NCBI GenBank assembly: GCA_026134085.1
Contig: JAOQIN010000001.1
Span: forward strand, 85,344-145,514
DNA: 60,171 bases
Direction: 5' to 3'
Origin: Candidatus Methanoxibalbensis ujae
Lineage (GTDB): Archaea > Halobacteriota > Syntropharchaeia > Alkanophagales > Methanospirareceae
In this document: piece after piece, positions 44,990-50,618 of the stretch
How positions within the stretch are numbered: the stretch's first letter is position 1
Layout: each line of letters opens with the position of its first letter
Translations under genes and position numbers: made by a program
Notes under the pieces: generated by a model
The model's database searches: none
What the model was told of the DNA's origin: nothing
What the model saw: only the letters and a program-made list of their open reading frames with translations

Positions 44990-45354
44990 TTCTGTTCCTA
45001 TGATGCAACTTCAAGTAACTTCAAGTTCTTCAAGTTTTTTAAACTCCTCTTCTGCGTTCTCTTCTATGGTCTGGTAGGGCTTGGCGTATTTCATGCCAAA
45101 TGATCCGCCTGCTCACGTGCTGTACTCAACACCGACCTTCTCCTCCCTCCGTCGGTTTTAAGCCTTCTGATGTTTATGCTTGAGGAACTGTTGCTCCTTT
45201 AGCTCTTTGATGAAGAAAAGTTTTATCAGGAGTTCTGAACAGATTTTTCTCCTGCCTTCATTCAGTTCTCCTAGGGTCAGCCGCCTGACCACCTCTTTTT
45301 CGGGTTTTCGTTCCATGACAGTTGTTAGTTAAAAATGTTTTGTCTGATACTCTA
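44990..45354 (-). mobile_element. Internally deleted IS630-family remnant
   Basis: Minus strand: ATG 45316 MERKPEKEVVRRLTLGELNE...LFFIK, then KVGVEYS and FGMKYAKPY fragments; candidate left end TA-GAGTATCAGACAAAAC at about 45354. Confidence 0.6.
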
Positions 45355-45419
45355 AATAGGAGATGAATGGAGGATAAGAATGGAAAATAGGATAAGGAAG
45401 AAAATGGTATATTATTCCG

Positions 45420-45898
45420 AGCTCTTCTTCTTATGAAGAAAAGAAGGACGAATATTGCTGCAGGAATTGCTATCGTTGAGAACTCGGGTATTACTGTTGT
45501 TTCAACCGTAGTTGTAACGCGTTCTGTAATGATCACTGGTGGTATAGGTAGTATAATAAGTCCAGTTGCAGTTGCATTGACGGTATGGTTGTAAGTCCCT
45601 GGCGGTGCATCCGAAGGCACATAAATGCTCAGCGTGCTATATTTTGACTCACCAGATATCAAATTCAGCAGGGTTGAATGAGTAACTCCAGATGGGATTG
45701 TCAATAGAAAGAACCACATGCTCGGTTGCTGGATAATCCATCTTACGTTCACTTCGTATGTAGCGGTCTCGCCGGGAAGCACTTCGCAATTGGAGTTATC
45801 TCCATGGTAATTCCAGGGTCTGCTGCAGCTGTCCCTACCATTCCTATATCTACAATGATTAACAGCACAAATGTGGCACATGCTTTTATGTTTTCCAT
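45420..45898 (-). pseudogene. Frameshifted PEF-CTERM surface protein (paralog of 50145-50618)
   Basis: Signal peptide MENIK...AAADPGITMEITPI in one frame; EVLPGETATY...IPEFSTIAIPAAIFVLLFFIRRR in another; shift near 45785; stop after RRRA lost. Confidence 0.78.
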
Positions 45899-46852: not shown

Positions 46853-47299
46853 TTATTCCTTATCATTCTCTCTCATACCTTCAGCTTCATCTAATAGTTT
46901 CTTGCAGTTGTTGAATACAAGAACGCACCCGTCAAGTGCCGTTTTTGCGTCTTCAAAGGTGTAAAGCTCATCAGGAGGTAGGGCTAACTCCTCATCTCCA
47001 TACATGCTTGGCTCTCTTTCCCTCCTCAGCACTCTCGAGATGGATGCTACTTTGTCTATTTTCGCCCTGAACCATTCCGGAAAATATTCAGAATTTCTCC
47101 TCAATATCGGTCCTACATCATGAAACTTCGGAGGCTCAATCCCAACAATCCTGAGTGAAGCTTTAAGTGAAAGCTCAACCGCCTCCTGACTCTGCCTGAT
47201 CACATAAGCATAATTTCCATCATTTAAAGCTTCTTTTGCATGCTTTAATCTCTCTTCAGCCTGCCTTAAATACGACCTTGCCATCTGAATGTTATTCAA
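46853..47299 (-). CDS. HEPN-domain protein (toxin of the MNT-HEPN pair)
   Basis: SQEAVELSLKA, KFHDVG, REREPSMYG; overlaps the MNT gene. Confidence 0.88.
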   Translation of the reverse strand: MNNIQMARSYLRQAEERLKHAKEALNDGNYAYVIRQSQEAVELSLKASLRIVGIEPPKFHDVGPILRRNSEYFPEWFRAKIDKVASISRVLRREREPSMYGDEELALPPDELYTFEDAKTALDGCVLVFNNCKKLLDEAEGMRENDKE

Positions 47300-47783
47300 T
47301 CCTTATCACCTCACCAAAACGGTAATCAGGCTTCAAAATCCAATACCACCTTTTACCCATCCTGACCCTCTTTGACCCCAGCTCTCTGAGCTTATTCCTA
47401 ACTCTTTCCAATATTTTTTTGAAAAAGTCTTCCTTGTCGTATGCAATTATCGCATCTTCAATCATATCTAAATAAAGGGGTGAAATCCTCATCGCCTCTT
47501 CTGGCGTCTTTATTATCGGAGAGAAATCAACGGAGTAGCCCTCATCAAAGAGTGCATTCACATAGAATTCTATCTCCCTCTCCACATCCATAAATTCCTC
47601 CTGCCGCTTAATTCTCTCTTCTGGAATTGCATCTATGACTAAAAGCAAGTCTATATCACTATCCTTCCTCATCTCTCCTCTTGCTACGGAGCCGAATACA
47701 ACTAGAGAAATGAATCTTTCACCATATCTCTCCTTCAAAGCCGCGACAAGCTTCTCTATCAACGCCTTATATGGCTCTTTCAT
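47292..47783 (-). CDS. Minimal nucleotidyltransferase (MNT antitoxin)
   Basis: FGSVARG...DSDIDLL; start ATG 47783 or GTG 47810. Confidence 0.9.
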   Translation of the reverse strand: MKEPYKALIEKLVAALKERYGERFISLVVFGSVARGEMRKDSDIDLLLVIDAIPEERIKRQEEFMDVEREIEFYVNALFDEGYSVDFSPIIKTPEEAMRISPLYLDMIEDAIIAYDKEDFFKKILERVRNKLRELGSKRVRMGKRWYWILKPDYRFGEVIRIE

Positions 47784-48007
47784 TTCATCATCAGCCCTCT
47801 TTCCTCCCACCTCGCTCCATCAGACCCCTGCACTCTTCCCCTACTCACTCATTCAAAATTCTCTATGCTTAAATATCGCTTCCACTTTTTATATCTCAAG
47901 CGGAGAAATCGCAAAAAGGAAGAAAGAAAAAGCGAATAAAAGCATTCACACAGGAAATCTAAAAGCGATAACATTTCTTGCTCTTTCGTTTGTTAAAGGA
48001 ACGTCCA

Positions 48008-48184
48008 AGTGCATTCCGATGCGGGAGGAGATTTCCACTGAGAATACCCTTCCTTCATTCCTCCAGCCGTGATAAGACGAACTTTGATGCATGATTTAAA
48101 AGTGCGATTATGAGAGTGGATTTCCACTTGTAAATATCGGGTGAGTGCATTTCAATATGAGAGTAGATTTCCACTTGTAAATAT
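48008..48184 (-). repeat. Three ORB-like repeats left of the cdc6 cassette (48008-48039 degenerate, 48109-48137, 48143-48182)
   Basis: Core GATTTCCACTTGTAAAT; 48143-48182 is the exact reverse complement of 49985-50024. Confidence 0.88.
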
Positions 48185-48503
48185 GCTGCGCAGACGGCGG
48201 CACTGAGGGAATGAAGATGTGGGTCTATACGCTTCGTAGGCTGCCGAATCCTATCCTCCCTCCTGCTCTTGCTTGCTTTTTTCCTTTCACAGGGTATAGG
48301 ACAGTGCCTGCCACTGCGGCGGAAGTAGGGATAAGCTTTAAATAACCTCTTTTTCATTTGAATTATCTTTATTTGAGATTATTAAGAAGGAGAAATGAGA
48401 AAGAAGAGGAAGGAATAGAGGTGAATGAGCATCTCTCCATCTCTTGATTTTTTAGTAAAAAATAGAGGGTTGAGAGAGGGGTCGTCCCGGGAGACCTGCG
48501 GAG

Positions 48504-48814
48504 TTGCGGGATGGCAGGGTCATAAGTGTGTATATGGAGAGGAGACGCTTGAGCGGATTGAGGAGATGGGTGTTGAGCGTTCAGCGTTCATAAGAGGAGC
48601 TGTTGAGAAGATGCTTGGTAGCGATGTTTTTAAGGAGAGGGAGAAACTGCGAGCGGAGGTGCGTCGGTTAAAGAAGCTCTTGCAAGAGAGTGAGCGACGC
48701 ATCAACGCGTTGGAGAAGGAAGTTGCTGAGAAGGAGCGGGTTATCGCAGAGCTGCGAGAGCGTTTAGAAAGGAGGGGGGCGTTAGAAGGGAAGGGGAAGA
48801 AAAATAACAAATAA
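48504..48814 (+). CDS. CopG/ribbon-helix-helix plus coiled-coil protein, apparently with a 1-nt frameshift near 48537
   Basis: TTG-RDGRVISVYM in one frame joins EETLERIEEMGVERSAFIRGAVEKML (RHH helices) and a coiled coil in another. Confidence 0.6.
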
Positions 48815-48926
48815 ATATTAAATACGAGGCAAAGTTTTATTTCAATAGGAAATATCTGAGGCGGGAAGGGAGCCATTTGCAATATTTGAGCGTGGTCTCA
48901 GGATATTCAAGAACAGGGATGCTCTT

Positions 48927-49985
48927 TTGCCGACATGGACGCCGCATCGCATACTTTTCAGGGACGATGAGATCGCACAGATAAGTATAAATCTCGGATA
49001 CTCGCTCATCGGCTCTACTCCTTCTCACATGCTCATTCTCGGACTTCCAGGGACAGGGAAAACAGCAACAGTCCTCTTCGTCATAAATAAGTTGAAGGAG
49101 AAGATAAGAGCAGAGAATATAGAAGATGTTCTCATAAGTTATACAATTTCTGGAAGAACTTCATACAGCACGCTTGTTGAGCTTGCGTCAGACATTGACA
49201 TATATTTGCCGACGAGAGGATACAGTTTCAAGGAAGCTTGGAAGAAGTTCAAGGAAGAGATAAGGGATAAGATTTTCATTGCTGTGATAGATGAAATAGA
49301 TTTGTTAATATTAAATGGAGGGAGAGATATTCTTTATTATTTGTCTAGGACGCCGAAAATGTCAATAATAGGAATATCTAATATTCTCAATGTATTGGAC
49401 TTGATAAAGGATCCGAGGGTGAGAAGTTCATTCTCTCCTCAGATTCTCGTTTTCAATAAGTATAATGCGGAGCAGCTGAGAGGAATACTTGAGGACAGGG
49501 TGAAGGAGGCGTTCTATTCTGGTGTTGTTGAAGAAGGTGCGATCGCACTCTCTTCAGCTCTCTCAGCTCAGAGAGGGGGAGACGCAAGATTTGCTTTGGA
49601 CCTCATGCTTAAAGCAGGCGAGAAAGCGGTCATAGAAGGAAAAGATAAGATAGATGAGTCGCTCATATATGATGTTGTTGATGATGTTGAGACGCTGCAT
49701 GTGAAGCGAGCGATAGAGAAGCTACCTCTCGCTCACAGATATCTGCTCTCAATAATAGCAGCGAATCAGGGATTATCTCCATCTGAGATATATGAAATAT
49801 ACAACAGGAACGCTCCTTCCCCTCTCACTCGGCGAAGACTCTCATCTTTCCTCTCTGAACTTGAACTATTCGGCATAATAAGAATAGAGAGGAGAGGGAG
49901 GGGTCGTGGCAGGGGCATAGAATACAGCGTTTTCCTGACAGAGCCTCAACTCAAGAGGATGCTTGAGGACATTTCACTTTCTTAA
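48927..49985 (+). CDS. cdc6: Orc1/Cdc6 replication initiator (true N-terminus extends upstream to about 48852-48867)
   Basis: In-frame IFKNRDALLPTWTP, Walker A GLPGTGKT, Walker B IDEID, DPRVRSSF, YNAEQL, GDAR, winged helix ELELFGII...GRGRG. Confidence 0.92.
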   Translation: MPTWTPHRILFRDDEIAQISINLGYSLIGSTPSHMLILGLPGTGKTATVLFVINKLKEKIRAENIEDVLISYTISGRTSYSTLVELASDIDIYLPTRGYSFKEAWKKFKEEIRDKIFIAVIDEIDLLILNGGRDILYYLSRTPKMSIIGISNILNVLDLIKDPRVRSSFSPQILVFNKYNAEQLRGILEDRVKEAFYSGVVEEGAIALSSALSAQRGGDARFALDLMLKAGEKAVIEGKDKIDESLIYDVVDDVETLHVKRAIEKLPLAHRYLLSIIAANQGLSPSEIYEIYNRNAPSPLTRRRLSSFLSELELFGIIRIERRGRGRGRGIEYSVFLTEPQLKRMLEDISLS

Positions 49986-50084
49986 TTTACAAGTGGAAAT
50001 CTACTCTCATATTGAAATGCACTCGCACTGCACTCGCATACACCATCATGCATTTACAAGTGGAAATCTACTCTCATATTGAAA
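49985..50084 (+). repeat. Two ORB-like direct repeats right of cdc6 (49985-50024 and 50052-50084)
   Basis: ATTTACAAGTGGAAATCTACTCTCATATTGAAA occurs twice; the first copy overlaps the cdc6 TAA. Confidence 0.9.
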
Positions 50085-50144: not shown

Positions 50145-50618
50145 CTAAGCTCTCCTTCTTCTTATGAAGAAAAGAAGGACGAATATCGATGCTGCTGGTA
50201 TTGCTATCGTTGAGAACTCAGGGATTACTGTTGTCAGGACATTTGTATAAACGGCCTCCTCAACGGTCCAATGATTCCAAAGACCTTCAGCCTTCACATC
50301 ATGGTAGTAATCTCCGGGAGATGCATCGGATGCAACTGTGATGAACATGTCAACTGTTTTACTGCCCAAAGCGGGCAGATCAAAATCGTTATCGCTGAAT
50401 GTGTAGTTCCATCCAGATATCGGATTTGTGATGCTCAGATGCACTGTTTCGTCTATATCCACCTGACTTGTAACATTCACTTTATAGATTGCTGTCTCTC
50501 CGGGCAATACCTTATCATTTATCGGCGTTATATCAAGAGATATACCAGGATCCGCCTCCACGACAGATGCCGTTAAAGCAAATACAAACACAATACCTGC
50601 CAAAAATATTTTCTTCAT
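50145..50618 (-). CDS. Small PEF-CTERM (archaeosortase-sorted) surface protein with one NEW3/Ig-like domain
   Basis: Signal peptide; PGETAIYKVNV...ASDASPGDY; tail IPEFSTIAIPAASIFVLLFFIRRRRA. Confidence 0.88.
   Translation of the reverse strand: MKKIFLAGIVFVFALTASVVEADPGISLDITPINDKVLPGETAIYKVNVTSQVDIDETVHLSITNPISGWNYTFSDNDFDLPALGSKTVDMFITVASDASPGDYYHDVKAEGLWNHWTVEEAVYTNVLTTVIPEFSTIAIPAASIFVLLFFIRRRRA

Follow-up and report, generated by a model that had tools for sequence, protein, structure and literature searches.

A plasmid-type cdc6 cassette between inverted origin-box arrays, assembled in both orientations among related strains: a candidate captured origin in Candidatus Methanoxibalbensis ujae

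Archaeal origins of replication are pictured as two inverted boxes lying 100-400 bp apart. The origins predicted for the plasmids pCaT2 (NZ_AP011953) and pRMAS01 (NZ_AP025699), whose initiators are the top plasmid matches (38-40% identity) of the Cdc6 protein discussed here, carry tandem outward-facing boxes around an AT-rich stretch, the pair spaced by 246-341 bp and entirely upstream of cdc6, in replicons that exist as free plasmids; no paper mapping these two origins was found in the literature. The same type of initiator is presumably shared by pFV1 and pFZ1. In Sulfolobus oriC1, inverted origin boxes (ORBs) of defined polarity surround an AT-rich element (ORB2-DUE-ORB3) in a gene-free region of about 130 bp (available portion of PMC12141716). 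The oriC2-cdc6E/oriC2D region of Haloarcula hispanica is an acquired secondary origin with a variable number of ORBs flanking its own cdc6, in which the origin upstream alone suffices, and no inversion is described in the available portions of PMC3936714 and PMC3528665. Recurrent archaeal inversions at short repeats are known from Thermococcus, where they require the pTN3 integrase and at least 104 bp (available portions of PMC5495485 and PMC8371274), while homologous recombination in T. kodakarensis is reported at 500 bp (PMC5495485, same portion).

The locus described here lies in the window, i.e. the whole stretch of 60,171 nucleotides of DNA of the methane-oxidising archaeon Candidatus Methanoxibalbensis ujae that was analysed, and its features are collected in Table 1. 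It shares with pCaT2 and pRMAS01 a near-identical box with tail and the outward-facing inverted arrangement of TTACAAnTnGnAA boxes around an AT-rich stretch, and its origin is likewise a predicted one, whereas its strong boxes are 1802 bp apart (compact origins span less than 450 bp), enclose cdc6 together with a small gene, and belong to a chromosomal, inverting segment. The G-string of the canonical oriC1 box is replaced at the cassette by the tail TCTACTCTCA, and both the Cdc6 clade and the box differ from those of H. hispanica oriC2. Compared with the Thermococcus inversions, the repeats are shorter (33-87 bp), and neither the genome nor the listed ORFs of the strain loci yielded an intact integrase. 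The enclosure of an initiator gene by arrays, to which the first-pass annotation had drawn attention as unusual, is present, but it is no novelty, since haloarchaeal cdc6 genes with ORBs on either side have been described (available portions of PMC3528665 and PMC3936714). An ORB-bounded invertible cdc6 cassette was not found in the literature covered, which comprised paper listings and passages of papers.

Table 1. Features of the cassette and its fixed flank, in window coordinates; box functions are predicted
Feature	Coordinates	Strand	Details
Degenerate repeat-unit relic	48008..48039	(-)	81% over 32 nt; <7 bits (subfamily matrix)
Left outer origin box (ORB)	48109..48135	(-)	First 24 nt of the unit only; 22.3 bits
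Left inner ORB	48143..48182	(-)	Left arm of perfect 40-bp inverted repeat; presumed crossover zone
Invertible segment	48183..49984	.	1.8 kb; both orientations among related loci
AT-rich tract, likely unwinding element	48321..48460	.	Peak of 72% AT at 48341-48420
Broken gene of a 110-112 aa protein, likely ribbon-helix-helix (RHH) + coiled coil	48477..48814	(+)	
Weak ORB-like box over cdc6 start	48840..48853	(+)	7.8 bits
Orc1/Cdc6 initiator, plasmid-type clade	48852..49985	(+)	377 codons; TIGR02928, Pfam, alignment, trees
Right inner ORB	49985..50024	(+)	Right arm of 40-bp inverted repeat; overlaps cdc6 stop at 49985
Right outer ORB	50052..50084	(+)	
PEF-CTERM surface-protein gene	50145..50618	(-)	Outside cassette; fixed flank used for orientation

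The repeat copies, the perfect 40-bp inverted pair and its overlap with the cdc6 stop were all recovered as first annotated, and the right side holds two identical 33-bp copies (49985-50017 and 50052-50084). A search of the whole 1.99-Mb genome with up to nine mismatches found four copies of the unit at the cassette and one weak copy elsewhere; this clustering exceeds chance. Perfect inverted repeats of at least 33 bp with arms within 6 kb, counted outside N runs and a single 79-bp contig-end hairpin, occur at two places genome-wide, the cassette and a locus of canonical ORBs on contig C22. The copies of the proposed five-copy array are thus real, but the degenerate fifth is confined to one flank type (A), lies outside the inverting segment and adjoins the cdc6 end in one inverted locus (L032). 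Array copy number ranges from 1 to 5 among related loci, and the spacers vary too. The box spacings (47-89 bp; nine distinct values) appear helically phased, with R 0.78 at 10.5 bp, but this was set aside, since short spacer duplications account for the pattern and the individual spacings are interdependent.

The unit had been taken for a double box with a 4-nt core; it is better described as a single predicted origin box of about 24 nt followed by a tail. TACAAGTGGAAA matches the canonical ORB of the host, TTCCAGTGGAAA, at 10 of 12 positions without gaps, the outer copies next to the variable flank keep the first 24 nt and have lost TATTGAAA, and a single box with the same (TCT/TTC)ACTCT tail is found both in L055, the origin of the sister clade, and on pCaT2. 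A dif/attC-like reading of the unit was rejected. The core TTACAAGTnGAAA forms outward-facing inverted pairs at 11 of the 21 distant-relative loci, against none of the 28 canonical cdc6 loci, so that distant homologues of the gene do carry the boxes. No box pair was seen at nine of these 21 loci, some of them cut by contig ends and three only 29-31% identical, and L085 has a variant repeat only. The gene-enclosing layout recurs in L053 and L054 (40% identity), the latter with eight boxes upstream and five directly downstream of cdc6. The co-occurrence points to the 24-nt unit as the ORB of the plasmid-type Cdc6 clade, which its initiators would bind, although the scoring matrix was trained on sites first found using this cassette's own box and is partly circular. 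A predicted binding box is thus available for a widespread mobile-element Cdc6 clade that includes two Methanothermobacter plasmids, and these could serve as vector replicons.

The cdc6 product scores 260.8 bits against TIGR02928 (cut-off 181.3) and exceeds the Pfam cut-offs for Cdc6_lid and Cdc6_C, with the Walker A/B motifs, the lid and the C-terminal winged-helix domains visible in the alignment. The canonical Orc1 of the host is encoded separately, on contig C34, and the best match of the cassette Cdc6 in 40 relatives is 40%. In an unrooted quick tree, canonical and other Cdc6 proteins are split with an SH-aLRT support of 100, pCaT2 and pRMAS01 fall on the cassette's side, and inside that clade there is no specific sister relation between cassette and plasmids. 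Judged by its sequence, the cassette Cdc6 is therefore not the vertically inherited Orc1 of the host and groups with plasmid initiators; the tree and the co-occurrence of box and initiator together back the acquired origin suggested in the first-pass annotation. All pairs of eight cdc6 alleles give 621 synonymous versus 249 non-synonymous codon differences. Viral contigs yielded neither a relative of the Cdc6 clade nor one of the small protein, phage matches reach only 24-28%, and a tandem-box match among these contigs (L120) proved to be an unrelated 35-bp repeat.

Fifteen near-identical loci could be oriented, ten as here and five inverted, a count that sets aside two 91-93% Cdc6 fragments without arrays (L052 and L057); the invertible segment offered as one option by the first reading is thereby supported. 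The flank on the PEF-CTERM side is present in 13 of 13 loci readable on that side, and the left flank varies between strains. An inverted locus (L035) and one oriented as here (L036) have a flank in common, without a single difference over 400 nt (100% identity), and in a second such pair, L032 and L033, both flanks are common (94% and 96%). The segment therefore lies in both orientations with the same flanks among related strains, as read from assemblies; among the listed pieces of Logan contigs from eight runs, none bridges an array and no strand-switch joint appears. The crossovers fall inside the arrays, whose longest perfect repeats are 33-87 bp across loci. On a 12-row tree (L031, L043 and L044 being too short for inclusion), orientation requires four changes and 0% of 200 bootstrap trees allow one, the tree itself being poorly resolved with one of nine inner branches starred. 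The neighbours of the strain loci are island genes, only 67-79% alike to DNA of the present genome (G000), and the GlmS of L040 has no close match among 79 genomes of the class. In one locus, L034, the left array is separated from the AT tract by a 1.5-kb insertion.

A comparable arrangement is found at the host's native ORBs, which bracket an rpl19e-rpl18-rps5-rpl30 block of 3.3-4.5 kb whose orientation is reversed between the genomes G313 and G024. As at the cassette, the ORBs are outward-facing and kilobases apart and enclose genes in a block flipped between relatives; unlike the cassette, the native pair has the canonical box, an unlinked and vertically inherited Orc1, and ribosomal genes rather than an initiator inside. 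One lineage has two unrelated box/initiator systems with kilobase box spacing, both enclosed segments lie flipped among relatives, and both flips are at repeats far shorter than reported for archaeal recombination.

The copy in the present genome is damaged. The AT-rich tract is where it had been predicted, but here it lacks 18 bp after 48325 and an uninterrupted A/T run, 18-26 bp long in relatives, after 48373, both stretches being present in 10 of 10 aligned relatives. In the small gene, intact in its homologues, AGG stands in the place of the ATG start codon and the frame is shifted by loss of 1 bp near 48538-48540, while cdc6 starts with ATA where relatives have ATG; neither these start-codon losses nor the frameshift or the AT-tract deletions occur in any of the 10 aligned relatives. 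The CopG-Cdc6 pair proposed earlier therefore stands as to the family of cdc6, not as an intact pair. This origin copy is likely silent, the chromosome relying on the canonical Orc1 and ORBs.

On balance, the plasmid-type cdc6 between outward-facing arrays is somewhat more readily explained as a captured origin that flips through recombination between its initiator-bound arrays, probably a side effect of origin activity that involves no dedicated recombinase, than in any other way. Its ancestor, to judge from L055 and pCaT2, would have been compact, consisting of left boxes, an AT-rich stretch of 220-250 bp, right boxes and cdc6. In the derived layout the strong right-hand boxes would now stand behind cdc6, giving a box pair 1.8 kb apart that encloses the AT tract, the small, likely repressor gene and cdc6. 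As the assemblies show, exchange within the arrays inverts the segment; the repeats may be juxtaposed by Cdc6 molecules that occupy both arrays, or by the pair of forks that depart from the AT tract, and once these repeats are brought together an identity of 33-43 bp could suffice for recombination. Firing across 1.8 kb is assumed here, since the ORBs of known origins are separated by about 130 bp (PMC12141716, available portion). A wider reading, less likely than not, is that origins of ANME-1 are stretched, with inverted initiator sites kilobases apart loading helicases, that the captured plasmid origin has converged on this form around its own initiator gene, and that firing, through bridging by the initiator or template switching from fork to fork, recombines the 24-40-bp boxes and turns the DNA between them without a recombinase. 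If so, inversion by the Orc1/Cdc6-ORB pair would be coupled to replication, and the mutations of the module in this genome would be a case of the host turning it off. Since the 2-kb module exists in intact and in naturally decayed alleles, with the compact origin of the sister clade as control, it makes testable the maximum ORB distance for MCM loading and whether initiation drives inversions around origins.

By the logic of Haloarcula oriC2/oriC2D, the working origin would instead span about 660 bp (left array, AT tract and cdc6-start box), the downstream array would only titrate Cdc6, and, as the two arrays happen to be inverted, ordinary RadA-type recombination would occasionally turn the segment round whether or not the origin fires. 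The ORB cluster downstream of cdc6E is reported to repress oriC2 without origin activity of its own (PMC3936714, available portion), several haloarchaeal cdc6 genes are listed with ORBs on both sides (PMC3528665, available portion), a variable array copy number would suit a tunable sink, and compact relatives have a (+) box just before cdc6 of which a weak one is present here. That box, however, scores about 2 bits in two of eight relatives tested (L039 and L042) against 16.6 bits in L035 and L041, and 427 positions in the genome reach at least 7 bits with the subfamily matrix; it is likely a relic of the right-hand box of the compact origin and/or an autorepression site. As the two arrays also share the polarity of compact pairs, the perfect repeats lie far below the lengths reported for archaeal homologous recombination in the sources cited above, and the native origin is equally stretched and flipped with no cdc6 inside, this account is considered unlikely. 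A programmed switch for the PEF-CTERM genes or the origin, worked by a site-specific recombinase encoded elsewhere, appears quite unlikely. Recombination within as little as 33 bp (L040) and a surface-protein gene as the fixed flank would suit it, and G000 has one tyrosine-recombinase fragment. No resolvase was seen in G000, however, and no intact tyrosine or serine recombinase in it or in the ORFs of 12 listed strain loci (checked by visual reading and with tblastn against G000), although one may be absent from the assembly, whose completeness is 89%. The unit is moreover a poor palindrome that is explained as an ORB, the PEF-CTERM gene is directed toward the cassette so that a flipped promoter would not drive it, and a fixed-site recombinase would not cause spacers that vary and yet are identical on both sides in L032.

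It is very unlikely that the cassette is a fixed captured origin whose two orientations arose through chimeric assembly at the repeats in metagenomes of mixed strains: all inverted loci are indeed metagenome contigs from strain-rich samples, and the arrays of L032 share 87 bp, but the five come from four assemblies with differing junction sequences, L040 and L035 are joined across a perfect repeat of just 33-39 bp, both junctions are swapped in L032 and L035, and a flip is likewise seen in the native cassette when the genomes of two separate species are compared. Least credible is the non-autonomous element with terminal inverted repeats, or excisable mini-replicon, still moving between sites or hosts, a kind of element that the first-pass annotation had listed among its options. 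The left flank does differ among strains, a further locus (L083) has ori-cdc6-parA between 92-bp inverted repeats, and a contig assigned to a Ca. Culexmicrobium bin (L031) contains a cassette fragment, 91% similar. Cross-phylum transfer was nevertheless rejected for the last of these, a likely mis-binned contig, as the similarity runs beyond the repeats into the same PEF-CTERM gene. Against movement stand the constant flank, the lack of a target-site duplication beyond a 5-nt AT-rich match, the single copy per genome, the failure to find cassette DNA in 78 other genomes of the class, the absence of a transposase or transposon features at the cassette, and the fact that inverted repeats yield inversion, not excision. 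The 145-kb contig holding the cassette also carries core genes and the strain loci have chromosomal-island flanks, which argues against an extrachromosomal circle.

The small protein gave no Pfam RHH match, and a fold search with its full-length model returned coiled coils only. The model has short helices at residues 22-30 and 35-47, followed by a coiled coil, and for its N-terminal part all 15 Foldseek rows listed are RHH-type by their titles, CopG being first, though none is significant (best E 2.2). An RHH fold is thus plausible, and the gene is likely to encode a repressor.

The cassette encodes an Orc1/Cdc6 protein, as identified by domain and family profiles, that is distinct from the main initiator of the host. 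The second Orc1 of the genome (403 aa, contig C34), located ahead of ribosomal genes whose names were read from translations, groups with the Orc1 proteins of its family. The comparison of the window Cdc6 with the host Orc1, proposed by the first-pass annotation, placed the former apart from the canonical Orc1; two quick trees, both unrooted and holding 50 and 52 proteins, gave the split between canonical and other Cdc6 proteins an SH-aLRT value of 100. The initiators of the Methanothermobacter plasmids pCaT2 and pRMAS01, also the best plasmid matches, fall on the window's side of this split, and ParA-like neighbours, from a reading of translations, lie beside three relatives of the window Cdc6. 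When 300 other genomes of the phylum were scanned with a profile of the window protein's relatives, canonical proteins reached at most 347 bits and four genomes exceeded this range with 361-485 bits; none of the four belongs to the 38 genomes of the same family. No match above 40% was found between the window Cdc6 and 40 relatives, and a DNA search did not detect the cassette in 78 other genomes of the class. Compared over all pairs, eight cdc6 alleles show 621 synonymous and 249 non-synonymous codon differences. One homologue of the small protein bears the source label Methanophagales, and the host is on this account assigned to ANME-1. In one strain (L042:1-2521), the island that holds the cassette also contains, about 7 kb away, another cdc6 (42-48% to the host Orc1) that a TnpB-like gene interrupts. 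Another genome of the family (G008; 92% complete, 5 contigs) gave neither an Orc1/Cdc6 match with the query used nor a canonical ORB match; its replication may be independent of origins, or its assembly may have a gap.

The repeats were recovered at the positions first described for them, as a perfect 40-bp pair, an extra right copy, a short left copy and a relic. With 9 mismatches allowed, the cassette has four copies of the 33-mer and the rest of the 1.99-Mb genome a single weak one, and only a single further locus of the whole genome has a perfect long-range inverted repeat of at least 33 bp within 6 kb.

Repeat units at the cassette (window coordinates) and canonical ORB locus of the host genome
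Feature	Position	Remark
Inverted pair, perfect, 40 bp	48143-48182 / 49985-50024	repeat comparison of window
Second right-hand unit copy	50052-50084	
Left unit copy, shortened	48109-48135	
Relic of unit, degenerate	48008-48039	
Canonical ORB locus (L099)	G000:C22:13176-17042	related loci L121, L122, L123

A search for the repeat around homologous cdc6 genes, suggested earlier, covered 21 distant loci (15 metagenome, 4 genome and 2 plasmid) and found TTACAAnTnGnAA boxes as inverted pairs, with their tails outward, in 11 (L045, L048, L051, L053, L054, L055, L083, L084, L086, pCaT2 and pRMAS01). L085 has a variant repeat of 72 bp, and no box pair was seen in the other nine. In L045, L048, L051, L055, L084, L086 and both plasmids, an unsupervised repeat finder placed the pair among its leading inverted repeats. 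The box was missing from all 28 canonical cdc6 loci when one mismatch was allowed. With a matrix of 24 distant sites, first found with the window's own box, the four boxes of the window rank first of 3.98 million positions. By this co-occurrence the repeat is identified as the origin box of the window's Cdc6 clade, to which the protein is predicted to bind. The nearest outside locus, L055 (63% over 78 compared residues), carries, immediately before cdc6, a perfect pair of 34-bp repeats that are separated by 222 bp and have the tail TCTACTCT as in the window, so that the unit is a single box with a tail rather than the double box proposed at first. The compact form of the origin is likely ancestral. 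The cdc6 of L055 (743-1473), from the sister clade, is frameshifted near 994 into two ORFs despite its perfect-repeat compact origin.

As in the window, arrays lie both upstream and downstream of cdc6 in L053 and L054 (40% identity, likely one element), an arrangement like that of haloarchaeal cdc6 loci, for which ORBs on both sides are described (PMC3528665). In L054 (8900-12260), only cdc6 is enclosed, by eight upstream boxes at 109-201-bp spacing and five or six downstream boxes; a short GATTTC-type repeat makes up the spacers. The predicted origins of pCaT2 (L097:9222-9739) and pRMAS01 (L098:19334-19917), unannotated in their records, have outward tandem boxes around an AT-rich stretch immediately ahead of the initiator. 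In L083 (7929-10904), from a genome of another family, 92-bp inverted repeats (98%) enclose an origin, cdc6, a small gene and a ParA-like gene, all of the same clade, and nested repeats of 22-24 bp are present as well.

The segment occurs in both orientations, in agreement with the invertible-segment option raised earlier. Among 15 assembled loci orientable by their flanks (13 metagenome loci with 98-100% Cdc6 identity, L031 and the window), 10 are oriented as in the window and five inverted (L032, L035, L040, L041 and L044), both junctions being visible in five of the former and two of the latter. L035 and L036, which differ in orientation, have a common flank that is identical over 400 nt, and L032 and L033 have both flanks in common at 94-96% with opposite orientation; a third flank type (L039, L044), only 76% alike, is weaker evidence. 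A poorly resolved tree of 12 interiors needs four orientation changes (shuffled mean 3.6), and none of its bootstrap trees permits a single change. Bases within the first box move together with the interior, and the last box leaves its tail with the flank; thus the crossovers lie within the arrays, which have 1-5 copies at 47-89-bp spacings. At each locus the longest perfect repeat measures 33-87 bp, in contrast to reported minima of 104 bp for the pTN3 integrase and 500 bp for T. kodakarensis homologous recombination (PMC5495485, PMC8371274). A literature search on invertible origin recognition boxes in archaea found no matching paper. An insertion of 1.5 kb separates the AT tract from the left array in L034 (7795-9396) and contains a 338-aa ORF of weak transposase likeness (PHROG 506, E 0.005).

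It is somewhat probable that Cdc6 binds the boxes, that intact alleles would fire as origins and that the flip would be linked to initiator binding or the passage of forks. A compact origin with a titration array, inverted by ordinary recombination, is rather unlikely, although one ORB cluster downstream of a haloarchaeal cdc6 does titrate the initiator (PMC3936714). A recombinase acting in trans is improbable: searches of the 89%-complete genome gave one tyrosine-recombinase fragment and did not detect a resolvase. Assembly chimeras have a slighter chance still: the inversion is seen in assemblies, and the Logan-contig pieces listed bridged no array, but the five inverted loci come from four assemblies.

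A mobile element, the transposon-like reading of the first-pass annotation, is very improbable, with the PEF-CTERM side kept in all 13 loci readable there while the opposite side varies, one cassette copy in the genome, and nothing longer than 5 AT-rich matching nucleotides found as a target duplication. Transfer to Culexmicrobium was rejected, as the match extends at 91% into the PEF-CTERM gene of the same flank and the bin is likely wrong. The variable flank carries a nucleotidyltransferase/HEPN toxin-antitoxin pair (46853-47810), reduced in L032, L033 and L042 to its first codons ahead of a sugar aminotransferase-like gene. This pair and the cassette are flanked by two related genes for PEF-CTERM surface proteins in the same orientation; the left (45258-45881) looks frameshifted, and the right (50145-50618) is interrupted by a TnpB-like gene in L031, L032 and L033.

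The native origin of the host family resembles the cassette in having outward ORBs kilobases apart and enclosed genes flipped between relatives. On contig C22, canonical ORBs with outward G-strings, 3.3 kb apart, surround rpl19e-rpl18-rps5-rpl30, and a 113-bp mini-ORB unit outside each ORB is duplicated inverted (88%). We infer outward G-strings to be the normal polarity from a figure legend of PMC3936714 and the compact pairs. The canonical pattern was matched in 26 of 66 family genomes, with both orientations on one contig in four (G000, G313, G024 and G009); G313 and G024 have the same flanks around oppositely oriented ribosomal blocks, and G009 has nested ORB pairs.

The small protein is predicted to form two short helices and a coiled coil; Pfam gave no RHH match, a full-length fold search returned only coiled coils, and CopG ranked first, without significance, for the N-terminal model. 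The cassette copy of this genome is broken. Its lesions are missing from all 10 relatives aligned with it: 18 bp are lost after 48325 and a pure A/T run beyond 48373, the small gene has AGG in place of its ATG start and a 1-bp frameshift (near 48538-48540), and cdc6 has ATA in place of its ATG start; the end of the small gene also lacks 23-38 bp, and a few bases adjacent to the TATA-like box of cdc6 are missing. Contigs from two sequencing runs match 48199-48477 exactly (X1) and, without gaps and with a single difference, 48159-48736 (X2); one of these runs may come from the source sample. Sequence records include a 360-aa Cdc6 product that begins at a later start codon, so some Cdc6 protein may still be made.
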